64,000 bases of DNA from an uncultured Verrucomicrobiae bacterium (GCA_963756185.1 CAVWMS010000001.1:11038-75037), one strand, 5' to 3'; counted from the stretch's first letter, positions 8,169 to 44,087 are shown. Numbers and translations are program-made. Notes: a model not told the origin generated them from the letters alone.

Positions 8169-8240
8169 CTGCCTCGCTAGGACTCGAACCTAGACAAGCA
8201 GAGTCAGAATCTGCTGTGCTGCCAATTACACCACGAGGCA
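8169..8240 (-). tRNA. tRNA-Gln (anticodon CTG).
   Basis: Reverse complement is TGCCTCG-TG-GTGTAATTGGCAGCAC-A-GCAGATTCTGACTCTGC-TTGTC-TAGGTTCGAGTCCTA-CGAGGCA-G. It has a 7-bp acceptor stem (U1:A72), GTTCGAGTC T-loop and anticodon loop TTCTGAC. CCA is not encoded. Confidence 0.8.
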
Positions 8241-25840: not shown

Positions 25841-25912
25841 GAGGTTATAGGGCAAGTCGGGGGGGAAGCAAGGGGGAAGGCAGCCCTGATTTCGGGGGCT
25901 AGGGGAGGCTGA

Positions 25913-25960
25913 GTTCAGGTTCAGGTTTAAGTTCAAGTTCAAGTTCAGGTTCAGGTTCAA
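25913..25960. repeat. Tandem hexamer (GTTCAR)x8 flanked by about 34-bp direct repeats (AAGGGGGAAGGC..CCCTGATTTYGGGGGCTAGG), lying within the operon between the Pro-rich gene and exbB.
   Basis: The sequence is gttcag gttcag gtttaa gttcaa gttcaa gttcag gttcag gttcaa. The direct-repeat copies are at 25870..25903 and 25959..25994. Confidence 0.8.
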
Positions 25961-25989
25961 GGGGGAAGGCGACCCCCTGATTTTGGGGG

Positions 25990-27780
25990 CTAGGCGACGG
26001 TCGAGAGGTCGTCGGCGGCGGCGATTAGGGCGTCGTGGGCGACCGATCCGAGGAGGCGGTCGTAATGGAGGGCGACGACGAAGTGGGTGTCGCGGACGAC
26101 CGTGGTGGCGTGAAACTGGTCGCAGTCGATGGTGACGATGCGGTTCCAGCCGAGGCGCTGGCCGCTCTCCTTTGCGTGATCGACAAAGGAGCCGATGAAA
26201 TCGCGCAGGGCATCGAGGTCGGGCTTGCGGGGAAAATCGGCGCTTGCGAAGACGGCGCCTTTGACGAAGGCGGCGGCGGCGAAAATGCCGGGCTGATTGG
26301 CGAGGAAATCGGCGGTGCGCCTGGCCTCGGGCATGGAGGCAGTGTCGGCGGAGGAATCGGGTTCGGATGGATTTTCGGCGAGCGCGGGTTCAGGGCGCAG
26401 AAGAATGGGAGGAGGGACCTGGAAGCCGTGCATCCATGGGACGCGCTGAAGCGGGGGCGGTTCGGGTGTGGGCTGGGGCTCAGGCTCGGAAAATTGCGCG
26501 GCAGGCGGTTCCGGTTTTTGGGCGGCGGAAGGTTCGGGCGCGGGCTCCGGAGCTGCTTGCGCGGTGGGGGGTTCGGGTGCGGACTCGGTGTTGGCTTCGG
26601 CGGCTGGAGGCTCTGGTTCGGGGGTGTTGGGATCGGCCGGTGGTGTTTGGGCTGCTTCAGGGGTCGCTTCGGATGGTTTGGGCTCGTCGACTTTTTTGGG
26701 AGTGGGCTCGGAGGTTGGAGGCTCGATGATGGTGGTGGTGGAGTCGCCGAAGGGCGGCATGTAAAATGGATGATCGAGCGGGAGGCTTTGGAAAATCTCG
26801 TCGAGCGGAATCCAGACGCGGGCGTGTGGAAGCGGGTTGAGCATCGGGCGCAAATCCTCGGGCAGCGCCTTGATGAAATCGTTGATGGGGATTTCGACGT
26901 GGCCCTCGGCGAGCTGGGTTTCGATGGCGGCGAGCGGGAAAGCCGCGAGCGCGGCTTTTGAAGGAAGCGGACCCGGACGGAGGATCTTGGTTGGGAGCAG
27001 GCGGAAAATGGGAAGGAGGCGCAGGGAGATGGTCGGGGTGGGTTGGGCTGCCGGTTCGGGCGTGGTGGTTTCGGGAGGAGGGGTTGGCGCGTCGGCGGCC
27101 GGTTGCGGAGAAGGGGGTTCGACGTTGGCAGGAGGTTCGATTTTCGCGGACGCTCCTTCCTTTGGCGGTGTGACAGGTTCTTTTTCTTCGGCGATTGGTT
27201 TTTCGGGCGGCTTCGGCTCATCGGAGCGGCCGAAGAGGCCGAGGACGGAGGAGATCGCCTTGGAGATCAACGGTTGCGCGGTGGAATCGGCGGGATCCTT
27301 GCGGGCGGGCTCGGGCTCGATTGGAGCGGCGGGTGCGGGCGGCGGATTGACGACCCGTGTGGTTGCGGCCTCGATGATGACGCTGGCCTTCGCGCGAGCC
27401 CTGGCGGCATGTTCGAACGGGACGCCGTTGGGTGCGGGGGCCTTGCGCGCAACGAGGCCGACTTGCTCGAGTAATTTTTGAAGGGGAAGCTGGACTTCGC
27501 GTTCATCGGGCGAGGCCGACTCGGGCCGGAAGACGCCGGGGCATGCGGCAGTGAGCCGATCAAGTGGGACCGTGACGCGCCCACGGGCGATTTTTACCGC
27601 CAACTCGTCCACGACGAAACGGACCTGGGAGGAGTTGTCGTGAGGGCCCGGCTTGATGAGGTGCGAGGGCACTCGCGGCAGAATGTCGCCGAGCCGAAGG
27701 ACGATCTCCTGAGCCTCGTTTTGCGGCTCGGGCTTGGTTTCGAGATCGCTGGGGGCGCTCATTGGGCGTGATGGTAGCAA
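25990..27780 (-). CDS. Proline-rich protein with an internally duplicated N-terminal module and a C-terminal roadblock/LC7-like domain.
   Basis: The duplicated module appears as ILPRVPSHLIKPGPHD...VTVPLDRL... and again as LLPTKILRPGPLPS...VEIPINDF... Many PEPxP-type repeats. The C-terminus ...FHATTVVRDTHFVVALHYDRLLGSVAHDALIAAADDL resembles an MglB/roadblock fold. Confidence 0.55.
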   Translation of the reverse strand: MLPSRPMSAPSDLETKPEPQNEAQEIVLRLGDILPRVPSHLIKPGPHDNSSQVRFVVDELAVKIARGRVTVPLDRLTAACPGVFRPESASPDEREVQLPLQKLLEQVGLVARKAPAPNGVPFEHAARARAKASVIIEAATTRVVNPPPAPAAPIEPEPARKDPADSTAQPLISKAISSVLGLFGRSDEPKPPEKPIAEEKEPVTPPKEGASAKIEPPANVEPPSPQPAADAPTPPPETTTPEPAAQPTPTISLRLLPIFRLLPTKILRPGPLPSKAALAAFPLAAIETQLAEGHVEIPINDFIKALPEDLRPMLNPLPHARVWIPLDEIFQSLPLDHPFYMPPFGDSTTTIIEPPTSEPTPKKVDEPKPSEATPEAAQTPPADPNTPEPEPPAAEANTESAPEPPTAQAAPEPAPEPSAAQKPEPPAAQFSEPEPQPTPEPPPLQRVPWMHGFQVPPPILLRPEPALAENPSEPDSSADTASMPEARRTADFLANQPGIFAAAAFVKGAVFASADFPRKPDLDALRDFIGSFVDHAKESGQRLGWNRIVTIDCDQFHATTVVRDTHFVVALHYDRLLGSVAHDALIAAADDLSTVA

Positions 27781-38934: not shown

Positions 38935-40087
38935 ATGAGAATCGCTTCCGTCGCGCCGTTTCTTGGGATGCTGGCCGTGGGATTGCTGTCCGGCTGCAAC
39001 CAGTCCTCGACAAGCACCAACTCGACGCCGGCGCCGGATACCTGGAAGGTGGGCGAGTTTGCGTCGCTGACGGGAGGAAACGCCAGCTTCGGGCAGTCGT
39101 CGGACAAGGGGACGCGGATGGCCATCGACGAGATCAACGCGTCGGGCGGGGCGGGGGAAGAATATCGAGTTGATTACCGAGGACGACCGCTCGACGGCGG
39201 GCGAGCCCTCGACCATCATGCACAAGTTCATCTCGGAGGATCACGTCGTTGCGGTGCTGGGCGAGGTCGCTTCCTCGAAGTCGCTCGAGGCGGCGCCGAT
39301 CTGCCAGGAAAACCACATCCCGATGATCTCGCCGGCCTCGACCAACGCGAAAGTGACGCAGGTGGGCGATTACATTTTCCGGGTCTGCTTCATCGATCCC
39401 TTCCAGGGGAAGGTGATGGCGAAGTTCGCGCTGTCGAAGGGTTGGACCAAGGTCGCGATCCTGAGGGACGTGAAGCAGGACTACAGCGTGGGGCTGGCCG
39501 ATGCGTTTGAGAAATCGTTCACGGCCGGCGGAGGGACGATTGTGGCGAAGGAAGACTACAGCACGGGCGACAAGGATTTTCGGGCGCAACTGACGGCGAT
39601 CCAGGCGGCGAACCCGCAGGCGATCTTCGTGCCGGGCTATTATGCGGAAGTGGCGCTGATCGCGCGGCAGGCGCGGGAACTCGGCATCAAGGGGCCGCTG
39701 CTGGGCGGCGACGGATGGGTGGGCGAGTCGCTGCTGAAAGTGGCGGGCAACGCGCTGGACGGCAGCTTTTTCTCGAACCATTACTCGCAGGACGATCCGT
39801 CGCCGATCATCCAGAATTTTGTGAAGGCCTATCAAGCGAAGTATGGCGAAAAACCGGATGCGATGGCGGCGCTGGGGTATGACTCGGCGAAACTGCTGGC
39901 GGACGCCATCAGCCGGGCGGGGACGGCGGACGAACCGAAGCTGCGCAACGCGCTGGCTGAGACGCATGATTTCAAGGGCGTGACCGGCGACATCACGCTG
40001 GATGCGGACCGAAACGCCACGAAGGCGGCCGTGATCCTGACGATCGGCAACGGCGGCTTCCAATTCGTCCAACGCGTCGAGCCTTAA
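38935..40087 (+). pseudogene. livK: Branched-chain amino acid ABC transporter substrate-binding protein (LivK/LivJ-like) with one frameshift in a G-rich run near 39150-39165.
   Basis: A lipoprotein signal plus GEFASLTGGNASFGQ...AIDEINASGG is in frame 1. ...KNIELITEDDRSTAGEPSTIMHKFISEDHVVAVLGEV and onward is in frame 2. The junction falls in gggcggggcggggg. Confidence 0.6.
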
Positions 40088-40105: not shown

Positions 40106-41056
40106 GTGGCCGAATTCATCACGTTCCTCCAGCAGCTCATCAACGGCCTCTCGCTGGGGGCCATCTATGCGCTCATCGCGCTGGGGTACACGATGGTGTA
40201 TGGGGTGCTGCGGTTCATCAATTTCGCGCACGGGGACGTGTTCATGATCGGCGCGTTTACCGGGCTGTATGTCGCGCCGGTGGTGTTGAAGTTTTCCAAC
40301 GGCGGGCCGTCGTGGTACGGGGCGTTTGTGATTTTGATCACGGCGATGGTGGCATGCGCGATCCTGGGAATCGTGATCGAAAAGCTGGCCTACCGGCCGC
40401 TGCGCAACCGGCCGCGGCTGACGGTGCTCATTACCGCGATCGGCGTGTCGCTTTTTCTCGAGAATTTCGGGCAGTATATTTTCGGAGTCGACCCGCAGTA
40501 TTTTCCGGACCTGATCGGCGACCACGCGGTTGCGCTGCCGGCGTGGCTGGGGCCGCTGAACCACCTGGTCGTCATGGAGAGCCAGGTATTGGTCTTCGGC
40601 GTCACGCTGGCGCTGCTGGTGGTGCTGCGCTTCATCGTGATGAAGACGAAGCTGGGCACGGCGATGCGCGCGCTCTCGGTGAACCCGGTGGCCACGTCGC
40701 TGATGGGAGTGAACAATGACGTGGTCATATCGTTTACATTTGGGCTGGGCTCCGCGCTGGCGGGCGCGGCGGGGATTTTGATTTCGATCCAGCAGCCGTC
40801 CATCGATCCGCTGATGGGCTTGCAGCCGGGGATCAAGGCGTTCGTGGCCGCGGTGCTGGGCGGGATCGGGAACATCCCGGGCGCGGCGCTGGGCGGGATC
40901 CTGCTGGGGGTGATCGAGACGCTGGTGGTCGGGTACAGCGACCGGCTTCACATTCCCTCCGGTTACCGCGATGCGGTTGCTTTCCTGCTGCTGATCCTGA
41001 TCCTGCTCTTCAAGCCGAACGGCTTGCTGGGCCGCGTGGTGCGGGAGAAAGTTTGA
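40106..41056 (+). CDS. livH: Branched-chain amino acid ABC transporter permease.
   Basis: Typical LivH topology, ...GYTMVYGVLRFINFAHGDVFMIGAF... Confidence 0.85.
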   Translation: MAEFITFLQQLINGLSLGAIYALIALGYTMVYGVLRFINFAHGDVFMIGAFTGLYVAPVVLKFSNGGPSWYGAFVILITAMVACAILGIVIEKLAYRPLRNRPRLTVLITAIGVSLFLENFGQYIFGVDPQYFPDLIGDHAVALPAWLGPLNHLVVMESQVLVFGVTLALLVVLRFIVMKTKLGTAMRALSVNPVATSLMGVNNDVVISFTFGLGSALAGAAGILISIQQPSIDPLMGLQPGIKAFVAAVLGGIGNIPGAALGGILLGVIETLVVGYSDRLHIPSGYRDAVAFLLLILILLFKPNGLLGRVVREKV

Positions 41057-41057
41057 T

Positions 41058-42044
41058 ATGTTCGAGCGGCACAAGATCACGCTTCTGGCCGCGCTGGCCG
41101 CCATCTTCGCGATCTCGCGATTTTCGGGCCGGATTGACCCTTATTATTACCAGATCATTCTTTATATCGGGATCAATATCACCCTCGCAACAAGCCTTAA
41201 CCTGGTAAACGGGTATACGGGACAGTTTTCGCTCGGCCACGCCGGGTTCATGTCGGTGGGCGCTTATGCGGCGGCGTCGTTCAGCCTGTACGCCGCGGAG
41301 CCGTTGTTCGGGTTGATGAAGCCGCTCGGCCCGTTCGTTTCCTCGAGCGTTTTCTTCGGCATCGCATTGCTGCTGGGCGGGATCGCCGCGGGCATTACGG
41401 GGCTGCTCGTGGGCATTCCGTCGCTGCGGCTGAAAGGGGATTATCTTGCGATTGTGACGCTCGGGTTCGGCGAGATTATCAAGGTCGTGATTCAAAACGT
41501 TGACGCCCTGGGCGCGTCGCGCGGATTGTCGGTCGACTATGCATTTACCGATTTATTCTGGGTCTATGCCACCGCCGCGATCACGATTTACGTGGTGTTG
41601 AACCTGGTCAATTCAACTTATGGGCGCGGTTTCCTGATGGTGCGCGACGATGAGGTGGCGGCGGAGGCGATGGGCATCAACACGACCAAGTACAAGGTGC
41701 TGGCCTTTACGCTGGCGGCTTTCTTCGCGGGGATCGCCGGCGGCCTTTTCGCCTATCTCACGCAATTCATTACTCCGGACGGATTCAATTTTCTCAAATC
41801 GGTGGATATTGTGACGATGGTCATCCTGGGGGGAATGGGAAGCACGTGGGGCGTGGTGGTGGCGGCGATCCTGCTCACGATTCTTCCGGAATGGCTGCGC
41901 TGGGTTTCCGAGCGGCCCTTCCTGCCGCATTGGCTCGCGGGGCTGCTCGAAAACCGCATGATCCCCTATTCGCTGCTGCTGATCCTGCTGATGCTGCTGC
42001 GGCCGCAGGGGCTTTTTGGCGGCATCAGAAGGAAAACCGCATGA
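41058..42044 (+). CDS. livM: Branched-chain amino acid ABC transporter permease.
   Basis: ...NLVNGYTGQFSLGHAGFMSVGAY... Confidence 0.85.
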   Translation: MFERHKITLLAALAAIFAISRFSGRIDPYYYQIILYIGINITLATSLNLVNGYTGQFSLGHAGFMSVGAYAAASFSLYAAEPLFGLMKPLGPFVSSSVFFGIALLLGGIAAGITGLLVGIPSLRLKGDYLAIVTLGFGEIIKVVIQNVDALGASRGLSVDYAFTDLFWVYATAAITIYVVLNLVNSTYGRGFLMVRDDEVAAEAMGINTTKYKVLAFTLAAFFAGIAGGLFAYLTQFITPDGFNFLKSVDIVTMVILGGMGSTWGVVVAAILLTILPEWLRWVSERPFLPHWLAGLLENRMIPYSLLLILLMLLRPQGLFGGIRRKTA

Positions 42045-42826
42045 GCGAACCGGAACCGCTGCTCGATTTGCGCGACGTGACGGTCCGCTTCGGCGGCCTG
42101 AAGGCGGTGTCCGATTTCAATTTTTGCATCCGTCATCGCGAGCTGGTGGGGCTGATCGGGCCGAATGGCGCGGGCAAGACGACCATATTCAACCTGATCA
42201 CCGGTGTTTATCGTCCGACCGGCGGGTCGATCCTGTTCGAAGGCAAACCGGTGGCGGGAAAGAAGCCGTATCTCATCACCAAGCGGGGAATCGCGCGGAC
42301 GTTCCAGAACATCCGGCTGTTCTGTTCGATGTCGGTTTTCGACAATGTGCGCGCGGCGTGCAACATGCATTTGAAGCACGGAATCTCGCACGCGCTGTGG
42401 CGCGGGAAGGGCCTGGCGTCGGAGGAGGCGCGCATCGAGCAGGAGGCGAGGGAGTTGCTCGAGATCTTCCACCTGGACAAGGTCCGCGACGCCGCGTGCA
42501 CGAGCCTGCCGTACGGCGGGCAGCGGCGGCTGGAGATCGTGCGGGCGCTGGCCACGCGGCCGAAGTTGATATTGCTCGACGAGCCGGCCGCCGGGATGAA
42601 CCCGTCTGAGAAGACGGAATTGATGCAGTTGATCCGGTTCGTTCAGGAGAAATTCGAGATCGCGGTGTTATTGGTCGAGCACGACATGCGGGTGGTGATG
42701 GGGATATGCCAGCGGATCGCGGCGGTGGACTACGGAGTGAAAATCGCGGAGGGAAGCCCGGCGGAAATCAAGGCGAACCCGGCGGTGATTCGTGCGTATC
42801 TGGGGGTGGAGGAGGGTTGCGCATGA
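42041..42826 (+). CDS. livG: Branched-chain amino acid ABC transporter ATP-binding protein.
   Basis: Walker A GPNGAGKTT, LSYGGQRRLEI and Walker B LLDEPAAG. Start at MSEPEPLLDL. Confidence 0.85.
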   Translation: MSEPEPLLDLRDVTVRFGGLKAVSDFNFCIRHRELVGLIGPNGAGKTTIFNLITGVYRPTGGSILFEGKPVAGKKPYLITKRGIARTFQNIRLFCSMSVFDNVRAACNMHLKHGISHALWRGKGLASEEARIEQEARELLEIFHLDKVRDAACTSLPYGGQRRLEIVRALATRPKLILLDEPAAGMNPSEKTELMQLIRFVQEKFEIAVLLVEHDMRVVMGICQRIAAVDYGVKIAEGSPAEIKANPAVIRAYLGVEEGCA

Positions 42827-42894
42827 AGCCCTGCCCAATCTCAAGATTGGCATGCTTCCCGGATTCAGAGTAATCGAAGCTGGCGGCATGCCTG

Positions 42895-43365
42895 CACTTG
42901 CACTTTAACTTTCACTTGAACTCCCATGAACAAAGATCTGATTTTATTCGACCACGAGAAGCTGACGGTTTACGGGAAATCCTTGGAATTTGCCGCCTGG
43001 GTAACCGATATTCTCGAACTCATTCCCAATTCGCTCTCCGTCCGGGACCAATTGGACCGAGCGTCCACCTCGATGCCATTGAACATCGCGGAGGGCACTG
43101 GAAAATTCACCGTTCGGGACAAGTGCAGGTACTATGACTCGGCTCGAGGGTCCGCTCTCGAATGTGCCGCGTGCCTTGACGTTTTGGTTGTGAAGAAGAT
43201 CGTGGCTCCGGACCGTATTGGGCCTGGCAAGGAGCTCTTGCGTCCGATTGTTGCGATGCTTGTGGGTCTTATTAAGTCGATTTCACCGCGGAGGGTTTTC
43301 GGCAGTCCCGTGCGCCGGAGCAGCGAAGAGAAGTTCAAGTGAAAGTTAAGGAGTAAGCACAAGTG
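42895..43365 (+). mobile_element. IVS-like cassette: a four-helix-bundle (23S rRNA intervening-sequence protein family) gene bracketed by imperfect terminal inverted repeats, inserted between livG and livF.
   Basis: The left inverted repeat is CACTTGCACTTTAACTTTCACTTGAAC at 42895..42921. Its reverse complement matches GTTCAAGTGAAAGTTAAGGAGTAAGCACAAGTG at 43333..43365 (17/17 core identity). The CDS start and stop lie inside the inverted repeats. Confidence 0.4.
42926..43342 (+). CDS. Four-helix-bundle protein (23S rRNA IVS protein family).
   Basis: 138 aa. ...EFAAWVTDILELIPN...DQLDRASTSMPLNIAEGTGKFT...YYDSARGSALECAACLDVLV... is typical of this family. Confidence 0.65.
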   Translation: MNKDLILFDHEKLTVYGKSLEFAAWVTDILELIPNSLSVRDQLDRASTSMPLNIAEGTGKFTVRDKCRYYDSARGSALECAACLDVLVVKKIVAPDRIGPGKELLRPIVAMLVGLIKSISPRRVFGSPVRRSSEEKFK

Positions 43366-43376
43366 TAGCCGCGCCG

Positions 43377-44068
<692 letters not shown>

Positions 44069-44087
<19 letters not shown>

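Follow-up and report, generated by a model that had tools for sequence, protein, structure and literature searches.

The window, a stretch of 64,000 nucleotides (nt) of DNA from an uncultured Verrucomicrobiae bacterium (GCA_963756185.1, CAVWMS010000001.1:11038-75037), contains a small cassette between the livG-like and livF-like genes of a liv operon. This cassette of ~490 bp consists of a left arm, an open reading frame (ORF) for a four-helix-bundle (4HB) protein of the 23S rRNA intervening sequence (IVS) protein family, and a right arm that is complementary to the left one. Both arms are tandem arrays of hexamers and the same architecture is found family-wide, two features that go beyond the original prediction made for this DNA. 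We assume with about even confidence that the element is an IVS-type cassette which is carried in mRNA and whose arms would form an RNA stem of ~30 bp that is cut by RNase III. The argument is built on the anatomy of the element, its recurrence in the family, the conservation of the arms including compensatory changes, the co-orientation with host genes, purifying selection on the ORF and the existence of derivatives, all of which are observed. The architecture is coherent and widespread and has apparently not been described outside rRNA, and no prior description of IVS-type 4HB cassettes in mRNA or operons was found in the literature searched, the coverage of which is incomplete.

The 4HB gene (42926..43342, plus strand) encodes 138 amino acids (aa). 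The protein matches PF05635 (23S_rRNA_IVP) with an E-value of 1.7e-17 and 64 bits (cut-off 33.8) as well as TIGR02436 ("four helix bundle protein") with 59.9 bits (cut-off 24), which confirms the predicted family of the gene between livG and livF. The 17/17 identical core of the inverted repeats had also been recognised correctly, since the 17-mer GTTCAAGTGAAAGTTAA has exactly two copies in the 64 kb, one per strand (42905-42921, minus; 43333-43349, plus), where chance predicts 0.04 matches when up to three mismatches are allowed. The left arm (42883..42922, plus strand) comprises outer pairs at 42883-42894 and, with the core, a hexamer array at 42896-42922 that reads ACTTGC, ACTTTA, ACTTTC, ACTTGA and ACT in the register taken from the orthologs. 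The right arm (43332..43375, plus strand) comprises the second copy of the core, an array at 43332-43364 that was read from the sequence as AGT, TCAAGT, GAAAGT, TAAGGA, GTAAGC and ACAAGT, and outer pairs up to ~43375. Each arm thus has ~5 hexamer units, of the form ACTTNN on the left and NNAAGT on the right, and without gaps the arms are complementary by 88% over 26 nt (42897-42922 and 43332-43357). They are paired in both the minimum-energy and the centroid fold of 42880-43380, and a mini-construct of the two arms folds with -46.4 kcal/mol (z = -6.3), the outer pairs reaching bases just 5' of the livF ATG. The right arm ends 2 nt short of this ATG and has stop codons in all three frames. The start and stop codons had both been placed inside the repeats; this holds for the stop codon (43340-43342), which lies within the right arm together with the last codons of the gene, and not for the start codon (42926), which is located 3 nt past the inner end of the left arm. 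The complementary borders give a long terminal stem of ~30 bp that encloses the element and is conserved in the orthologs, and the loop of ~410 nt is essentially the ORF alone. With the same protein family and an ORF enclosed as loop by a long terminal stem, the element is a cassette of the ORF-carrying IVS kind, as had been proposed. A CRISPR array, defined by direct repeats of 25-40 nt with unique spacers, was considered and rejected on account of the repeat geometry, as the cassette has contiguous 6-nt units in two inverted arrays.

The window protein has 7717 relatives at E<=1e-5, and a profile of the 4HB family matches 11,920 clusters at 50% identity (E up to 0.001), among which most of the best-scoring 150 are tandem two-domain 4HB forms. 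Such two-domain proteins have ~250 aa, and in one locus (L027, 3947-4866) a double ORF lies within perfect 35/35 arms. For the flanks of these genes a scan of species-representative genomes was used as family sample, which comprises 80 loci from Verrucomicrobiota, Planctomycetota, SAR324, Desulfobacterales, Bacteroidota, Binatia, Kiritimatiellia and others (at least six phyla). An inverted repeat brackets 72 of 82 cassettes, with medians of 34 nt for the arm, 89% for the complementarity and 424 nt for the loop, and 38 of these 72 have the 4HB stop codon within the right arm. Both flanks show lag-6 and lag-12 autocorrelation (0.45 vs ~0.25). The number of repeat units varies from 3 to 17 across cassettes; apart from that, an array of 20 units was seen in L057 (6710-6829). 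As the arms of different cassettes are alike, it is the unit sequence, T-C-N-T-[A/G]-[A/C], that is conserved and not pairing alone, and mismatches between the arms occur at 25% of the N positions versus 2-3% at the fixed positions. The pairing itself is specific as well: the own right arm is the best partner of the left arm in 21-27 of the 82 cassettes, compared to ~1 expected by chance, in a rank test of own versus foreign partners that was used instead of a cross-locus pairing null because foreign arms share the hexamer motif. Among seven orthologs, for which the hexamer register was placed by hand and the alignment thus leans towards structure, 91% of the cells in the arms are paired, and in five pairs both partners have changed (11 cells). 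None of 500 shuffles reached the observed paired percentage or covariation score, and pairing drops to 21-45% when the partners are slid against each other.

More distant relatives have the same architecture with other repeat units. In Xanthomonas campestris (L180, 2929-3368) four GGGAATC units, a homologue of XCC0516 and four xATTCCC units follow each other between accB and accC. These arms are published GGGAATC repeats; six of the seven positions pair in all four units, unit-specific variants included, and the seventh forms a mismatch in every one. Rehm et al. (2015; PMC4692102) have catalogued such arrays and their inverted pairs in Xanthomonas and read them as G-quadruplex formers, and the 4HB family is not mentioned there. 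The XCC0516 (2GSC) cassette at accB|accC has repeat #15 of this catalogue as its left arm. As a general principle, G-quadruplex formation can be rejected, since the hexamer arms have no G-tracts. On plasmids, four cyanobacterial matches were found at E<=1e-3, and the arms there consist of the heptamers AGGGTGT in Calothrix and AGGAGTC in Aulosira and of GGAGATAA, with units of 7-8 nt, in Picosynechococcus. Irrespective of the unit, the arms measure ~29-37 nt. The cassette of Picosynechococcus sp. PCC 7003 (L178; plasmid NZ_CP016476.1, 1951-2373) is located between cas10/cmr2 and cmr3 of a type III-B operon. "23S rRNA IVP" is among the CRISPR-linked genes of a large clustering study (PMC10910872), and the cmr-operon cassette may explain this listing.

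At the livG|livF junction the cassette is, as the comparison of loci indicates, an old insertion that has been vertically inherited within one Chthoniobacterales clade since its ancestor. All close relatives with readable context (73-80% identity) are found at this junction. Judged by gene context, an orthologous cassette is present at the same site in at least nine related Chthoniobacterales-type lineages (loci L001, L002/L003, L163, L164-166, L167-171, L172, L173/174 and L175/176; L002/L003 is a Chthoniobacterales metagenome-assembled genome), every one with arms, which are 22-58 nt long and 83-100% complementary in nine of nine. Relatives that carry the gene here without repeats, which the original prediction had named as a sign of an ancient fixed gene, are therefore not found. 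Between the orthologs, the proportion of nonsynonymous differences (pN, 0.11-0.28) is well below that of synonymous ones (pS, 0.58-0.87), which indicates that the 4HB protein is under purifying selection, and the shared site together with saturated synonymous sites argues for an old and not a recent insertion. Within the close clade the 4HB protein evolves ~2-10 times faster than LivF, an uneven divergence from which cassette replacement is not decidable, as the synonymous sites are saturated. For comparison, 80 liv loci were collected from a metagenome scan with LivF (LivF 52-71% identical). In ~70 of these 80 distant loci livG is directly followed by livF with a gap of -12 to +108 nt and none has a 4HB gene; two outliers have gaps of 292 and 406 nt. 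Since livG and livF are tight in the distant operons, the cassette was inserted into an ancestrally tight junction, and the gene does interrupt the liv operon as predicted. This LivF scan yielded no presence/absence polymorphism among close relatives, the relatives found being at most 71% identical and providing empty sites. The nearest empty site (L083, LivF 71% identical) contains at 2462-2491, in the livG|livF gap just upstream of livF, an orphan right-arm-like array, AAGTAAAAGAGCAAGAGAAAG (AAGAGGACAAAGTAAAAGAGCAAGAGAAAG), which lengthens the C-terminus of LivG. It is the sole match to a strict pattern among the 80 control loci and suggests a scar of past cassette loss. The possible mobility that had been ascribed to the element has to be divided: recent mobility at the liv locus is contradicted by the at least nine same-site lineages, whereas movement between contexts has taken place elsewhere in the family. 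Within each of three groups of cassettes (L044/L045/L032, L016/L056 and L070/L077) the nucleotide identity of 80-93% is confined to ~430-476 bp and the flanks are unrelated, which means that such cassettes have moved. The shared homology begins ~30 nt beyond the hexamer array at a further outer inverted segment.

The position of the cassettes relative to their neighbours points to mRNA as their habitat. By crude frame calls, both neighbours have the orientation of the cassette in 47 of 73 cases, and in 2 of 73 both are opposed to it. An upstream ORF on the same strand ends at a median of 21 nt before the left arm, and inside the arm in 7 of 62 cases, and the downstream ORF starts at a median of 9 nt after the right arm. 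Flanks free of ORFs do not occur among the 82 related cassettes, so that the sampled subfamily lives in mRNA and not in rRNA. In the window, a simple sigma-70/terminator scan, which is not informative for Verrucomicrobia, gave no promoter- or terminator-like sites inside the cassette, and an Rfam scan detected neither rRNA anywhere in the window nor any family at the cassette, at gathering or E<=1 thresholds. From the missing promoter- and terminator-like sites and the co-orientation we infer that the cassette is cotranscribed with the liv genes in one polycistronic RNA. The GC content of the cassettes follows that of their hosts (r = 0.91), being lower in 81 of 81, which would fit long residence better than recent import.

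By analogy to the rRNA elements, the following course of events can be assumed. Once the ~490-bp unit had been inserted between the formerly adjacent cistrons livG and livF, the arms would pair in the liv polycistronic RNA in vivo, with the 4HB ORF in the loop, and RNase III would cut the double-stranded stem as in 23S rRNA IVSs. The cut would free a 4HB mRNA with a short leader and separate livKHMG from livF, and as each product would have a short unstructured leader, little harm would be done to the host operon. Cleavage by RNase III would be the most likely mechanism because the same parts are present in the same order in the IVS of Coxiella, which has a 28-bp terminal stem with tandem GACAGAT heptamers and is cut by RNase III within the stem in vitro (PMC4990558).

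Several points weigh against RNase III cleavage of an mRNA-borne stem. The proposal is made by analogy, and the stem in the window is the most eroded of the ortholog set, with 25 of 32 positions paired. Among the mismatches on the sense strand, G:U does not significantly exceed A:C (51 vs 38, p = 0.2), and the sequence is therefore silent on whether the pairing is selected at the RNA or at the DNA level. Moreover, each unit often has one position without a partner (25% in hexamer arms, four of four units in Xanthomonas), which together with a unit conservation beyond the needs of pairing hints at a reader that might act besides or instead of RNase III. The IVS protein of Coxiella is apparently not made (PMC4990558), whereas the ORF here is under selection. 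Finally, cutting a polycistronic mRNA could harm rather than protect the expression of livF. Because of the lacking G:U excess, the periodic unpaired position and the unit conservation beyond pairing, three other explanations stay alive, namely DNA-level ends, protein-binding arrays and an uncut relay, none of which is mutually exclusive with an IVS-type cassette.

The first of them states that the arms are the DNA-level ends of a small non-autonomous mobile element, comparable to the terminal inverted repeats of MITEs (miniature transposable elements with inverted repeats) or to single-strand hairpin sites, that the recombinase is encoded elsewhere and that the RNA stem is incidental. We consider this possible but rather unlikely. 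It would account for the homology of 80-93% that is confined to the ~430-476 bp of a cassette between unrelated flanks, and for the derivatives, which are an internally deleted cassette with both arms and the first 21 codons kept (L029, 5276-5455; MFDHEKLRVYQASMEFLGSGL*) and an ORF-less arm pair with a 22-nt loop (L012, 5455-5536). The orphan arrays at 25914-25961 of the window and at the empty L083 site, the 70-75 inverted GGGAATC pairs per Xanthomonas genome (PMC4692102) and the lack of a G:U excess in the arms would also be in accordance with it. However, no transposase or recombinase was found in or near cassettes and no target-site duplication at the boundaries read. Near-identical copies were not seen, the 64-kb window having one copy of the cassette. 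An integron cassette was considered as well; the called neighbours include no integrase, an attC site not having been searched for. Relatives in viral contigs, phage records and plasmids were absent at E<=1e-8, so that a phage or plasmid vector is unsupported. Furthermore, the arms have stayed complementary across saturated synonymous divergence, which implies selection long after insertion, and the strong co-orientation with host transcription is unexpected for a purely DNA-level element.

Alternatively, the units could be protein-binding sites, most plausibly for the own pentameric 4HB protein, which would bind ~5 units as single-stranded RNA, compete with the stem and thereby autoregulate processing or translation; we regard this as unlikely. 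The AlphaFold model of the window protein has a pLDDT of 88 with helices at residues 10-30, 38-59, 63-89 and 95-119, followed by a predicted disordered tail, part of which is encoded by the right arm. The top Foldseek matches are 2GSC (XCC0516) and 2RLD (BT_0352), with E-values of 2e-5 to 3e-4 and a target-normalised template modelling (TM) score of 0.84-0.89, and a profile search against the PDB finds 2GSC at E 4e-11. The crystal entries 2GSC and 2RLD contain five chains each, and by homology the window protein may form a homopentameric ring as well. The next matches are Avd alone (4DWL) and then Avd within the ribonucleoprotein of a diversity-generating retroelement (DGR), and the occurrence of this homologue together with RNA and the DGR reverse transcriptase in one complex (8UB7) would fit RNA binding by the 4HB protein. 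The number of ~5 units in arms of ~30-36 nt, for units of 6, 7 or 8 nt alike, could correspond to the five chains. In addition, the unit T-C-N-T-R-M is kept beyond pairing, with 97-98% paired at the fixed positions and 75% at N, and in Xanthomonas six of seven positions always pair, unit-specific variants included, and the seventh never does. Yet binding is putative, and ~3 helical turns of arm are equally explained by a double-strand-specific nuclease. The unit count of 3 to 17 and the persistence of ORF-less hairpins without a protein also speak against it.

The stem could also remain uncut and serve as a translational relay or insulator, in which ribosomes melt the arms, expose the next start codon and so couple livG, 4HB gene and livF. 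This appears improbable to us, despite some suitable spacings. In the clade of L002/L172/L173 the livG stop codon is inside the left arm, the 4HB gene starts 21-28 nt later, and livF starts 24-25 nt after the 4HB stop codon. The window has the 4HB stop codon in the right arm and outer pairs that cover the region just 5' of the livF ATG, and the median distance of 9 nt between right arm and downstream gene would suit a relay, too. In the clade of the window, however, the livG stop codon lies 56-70 nt ahead of the structured left flank, so that ribosomes translating livG would not open the stem, an upstream ORF end inside the arm is seen in the mentioned 7 of 62 cases only, and ORF-less hairpins as well as the rRNA-borne relatives would be left unexplained. 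That the gene is an ordinary fixed accessory gene, flanked by coincidental complementarity or terminator-like hairpins, agrees with its fixation at livG|livF in all close relatives found and is nevertheless effectively refuted already, given the chance expectation of 0.04 for the core repeat, the arms in 72 of 82 relatives and in distant subfamilies, the compensatory arm changes and a cassette free of terminator-like sites.

Beyond the IVS-type cassette in the liv mRNA, a wider picture can be drawn, which as a whole is put forward as a tentative proposition. According to this, 4HB ORFs within inverted arrays of 6-8-nt units might constitute one unrecognised superfamily of minimal selfish cassettes, which would colonise the gaps between cistrons in conserved operons (livG|livF, livK|livH, accB|accC, cmr2|cmr3) as well as 23S rRNA helices in many phyla. 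The rRNA IVSs with ORF, the Xanthomonas GGGAATC pairs and perhaps the cyanobacterial heptamers would then be facets or decay products of it, the pentamer would read ~5 units of its own arms and control processing or spread, and the Avd protein of DGRs would be a domesticated relative. Independent of the whole, an RNA-linked role is indicated for the 4HB/Avd family, and at least part of the Xanthomonas GGGAATC arrays would find a concrete explanation. The 4HB cassette within a cmr operon calls for caution in CRISPR surveys. For annotation it matters that conserved operons are split by cassettes and that neighbouring ORFs acquire repeat-encoded tails from them. The same architecture is available in cultured, genetically tractable bacteria, e.g., as accB-XCC0516-accC in X. 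campestris.

The host operon of the window, all on the plus strand, is a livK-H-M-G-F string with the 4HB gene between the two final genes. It begins with a gene for a livK-like periplasmic binding protein (38935..40087; Peripla_BP_6, E 3e-52), which is split over two frames by one extra G relative to the L001 ortholog in a G-run at ~39150-39160, as seen in the alignment; this apparent +1 shift (39140-39175) reflects either an error in sequencing the homopolymer or a genuine frameshift. Genes for a livH-like (40106..41056; BPD_transp_2, E 1.8e-41) and a livM-like permease (41058..42044; BPD_transp_2, E 7.8e-38) follow, and the livM stop is overlapped by 4 nt by the gene for the livG-like ATPase (42041..42826, stop codon 42824-42826; ABC_tran and BCA_ABC_TP_C), which has LivG as top NCBIfam match with E 1e-84, under the equivalog cut-off. 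The livF-like ATPase gene (43377..44087; ABC_tran, top NCBIfam match LivF, E 2e-80) has its start codon 34 nt past the 4HB stop codon. At third codon positions the insert has a GC content of 0.66 and the liv genes one of 0.77-0.87. A spacer (42827..42882, plus strand) leads from the livG stop to the structured left flank; sequence reading and comparison of the ortholog junctions show that it includes a degenerate copy of a spacer module known from the orthologs. In L163 (2735-3526) the left-arm module is present three times in tandem, with a spacer of ~60 nt (AATCTTTCCAACTCCA...GCCGAAGGCTG) after each copy, and together with two right arms this gives nested stems; remnants of this spacer are seen in L164, L167, L001 and the window. 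The 16-nt palindrome CCAATCTCAAGATTGG at 42835-42850, between the livG stop and the left arm, resembles a generic left unit (AATCT) abutting a generic right unit (AAGATT), which may be chance. L002 has a second, unrelated 4HB cassette in the same operon between livK and livH (1750-2207), which is also present at the starts of L172 and L173; the arms of this livK|livH cassette are (TTGATGG)n heptamers of 37 nt with 89% complementarity.

Elsewhere in the window, an orphan hexamer array at 25914-25961 reads (CTTGAA/CCTGAA)x8 on the minus strand and (GTTCAG/GTTCAA)x8 on the plus strand. It is of the left-arm type on the minus strand, has neither a 4HB gene nor an inverted partner and sits between two minus-strand genes, one at 25990..27780 and a MotA/ExbB-like ORF ending at ~25835. 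A direct repeat of ~32 nt flanks it (~25868-25903 and ~25962-25995), and the upstream gene has its stop codon within this repeat. Other neighbours of the cassette locus are a sensor kinase-like ORF and a UvrD-type helicase, and a tRNA gene (8169-8240, minus strand) is the sole Rfam match of the window at the gathering threshold.

Several known systems share single features with the cassette. In the early region of phage T7 and in lambda, RNase III cuts an intercistronic stem so that each cistron becomes a separate mRNA; these sites are local hairpins, which in contrast to the cassette stem neither enclose a gene nor are built from tandem repeats. MITEs and repetitive extragenic palindromic (REP) elements are, like the cassette, small, intergenic, free of a transposase and bordered by inverted termini, and have shortened derivatives. 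However, the cassette has a conserved non-transposase ORF and tandem-array arms, and neither a target duplication nor a high-copy family of near-identical members was seen. Cyanobacterial short tandemly repeated repetitive (STRR) heptamers form short tandem arrays. TAACTGA heptamers are known as direct repeats from Beggiatoaceae, cyanobacteria and Bacteroidetes (PMC4679880). Both kinds of heptamers resemble the arms as tandem arrays, with 2-6 units and an end directly upstream of start codons, and the cassettes in their patchy cross-phylum spread with no known transfer mechanism, but unlike the cassettes they have been described as direct arrays that enclose no gene.

Avd (4DWL, 8UB7) has the same fold as the 4HB protein (TM ~0.67-0.69 model-normalised, 0.75-0.86 target-normalised), is a pentamer and works bound to RNA. 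It differs by a sequence identity of 11-12%, and the window gene has no adjoining reverse transcriptase or template/variable repeats, for which reason a DGR was rejected; a reverse transcriptase is absent among the called genes of the window neighbourhood and of any orthologous locus. The Xanthomonas GGGAATC repeats are, like the cassette arms, short tandem arrays (~4 units), often in inverted pairs, and are mostly located between co-oriented genes, near or overlapping start and stop codons. Repeats #16 and #17, the sole pair whose spacing was read, are 60 nt apart between groES and groEL and enclose no ORF, and the T/A-rich hexamer of the window is unable to form a quadruplex.

The closest likeness is that to the 23S rRNA IVSs with ORF of Coxiella burnetii, Leptospira, Brucella and Haemophilus (PMC4990558), which encode an S23p/PF05635 protein as well. 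They share with the cassette a size of ~430-490 nt, an ORF that fills the loop of a terminal stem of ~28-35 bp, a stem composed of short repeats in tandem (heptamers, GACAGAT, in Coxiella and hexamers in the window) and passive carriage inside a host transcript. They differ in their host site, which is helix 25 or 45 of the 23S rRNA and not the protein-coding livG|livF operon, and cleavage by RNase III has been demonstrated for the Coxiella IVS, whereas for the liv cassette it is deduced. The Coxiella ORF is seemingly untranslated and decaying, in contrast to the window ORF, which is under purifying selection. With livG and livF as its flanks, the liv cassette would resemble an IVS in its workings and is not a 23S rRNA IVS, as it lacks the defining location. 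The origin of the rRNA IVSs and the role of the S23p ORF have been debated since ~1990. If it is true that the same type of element inhabits ordinary operons in many phyla, the rRNA IVSs would be one habitat of a general cassette that is excisable at the RNA level.

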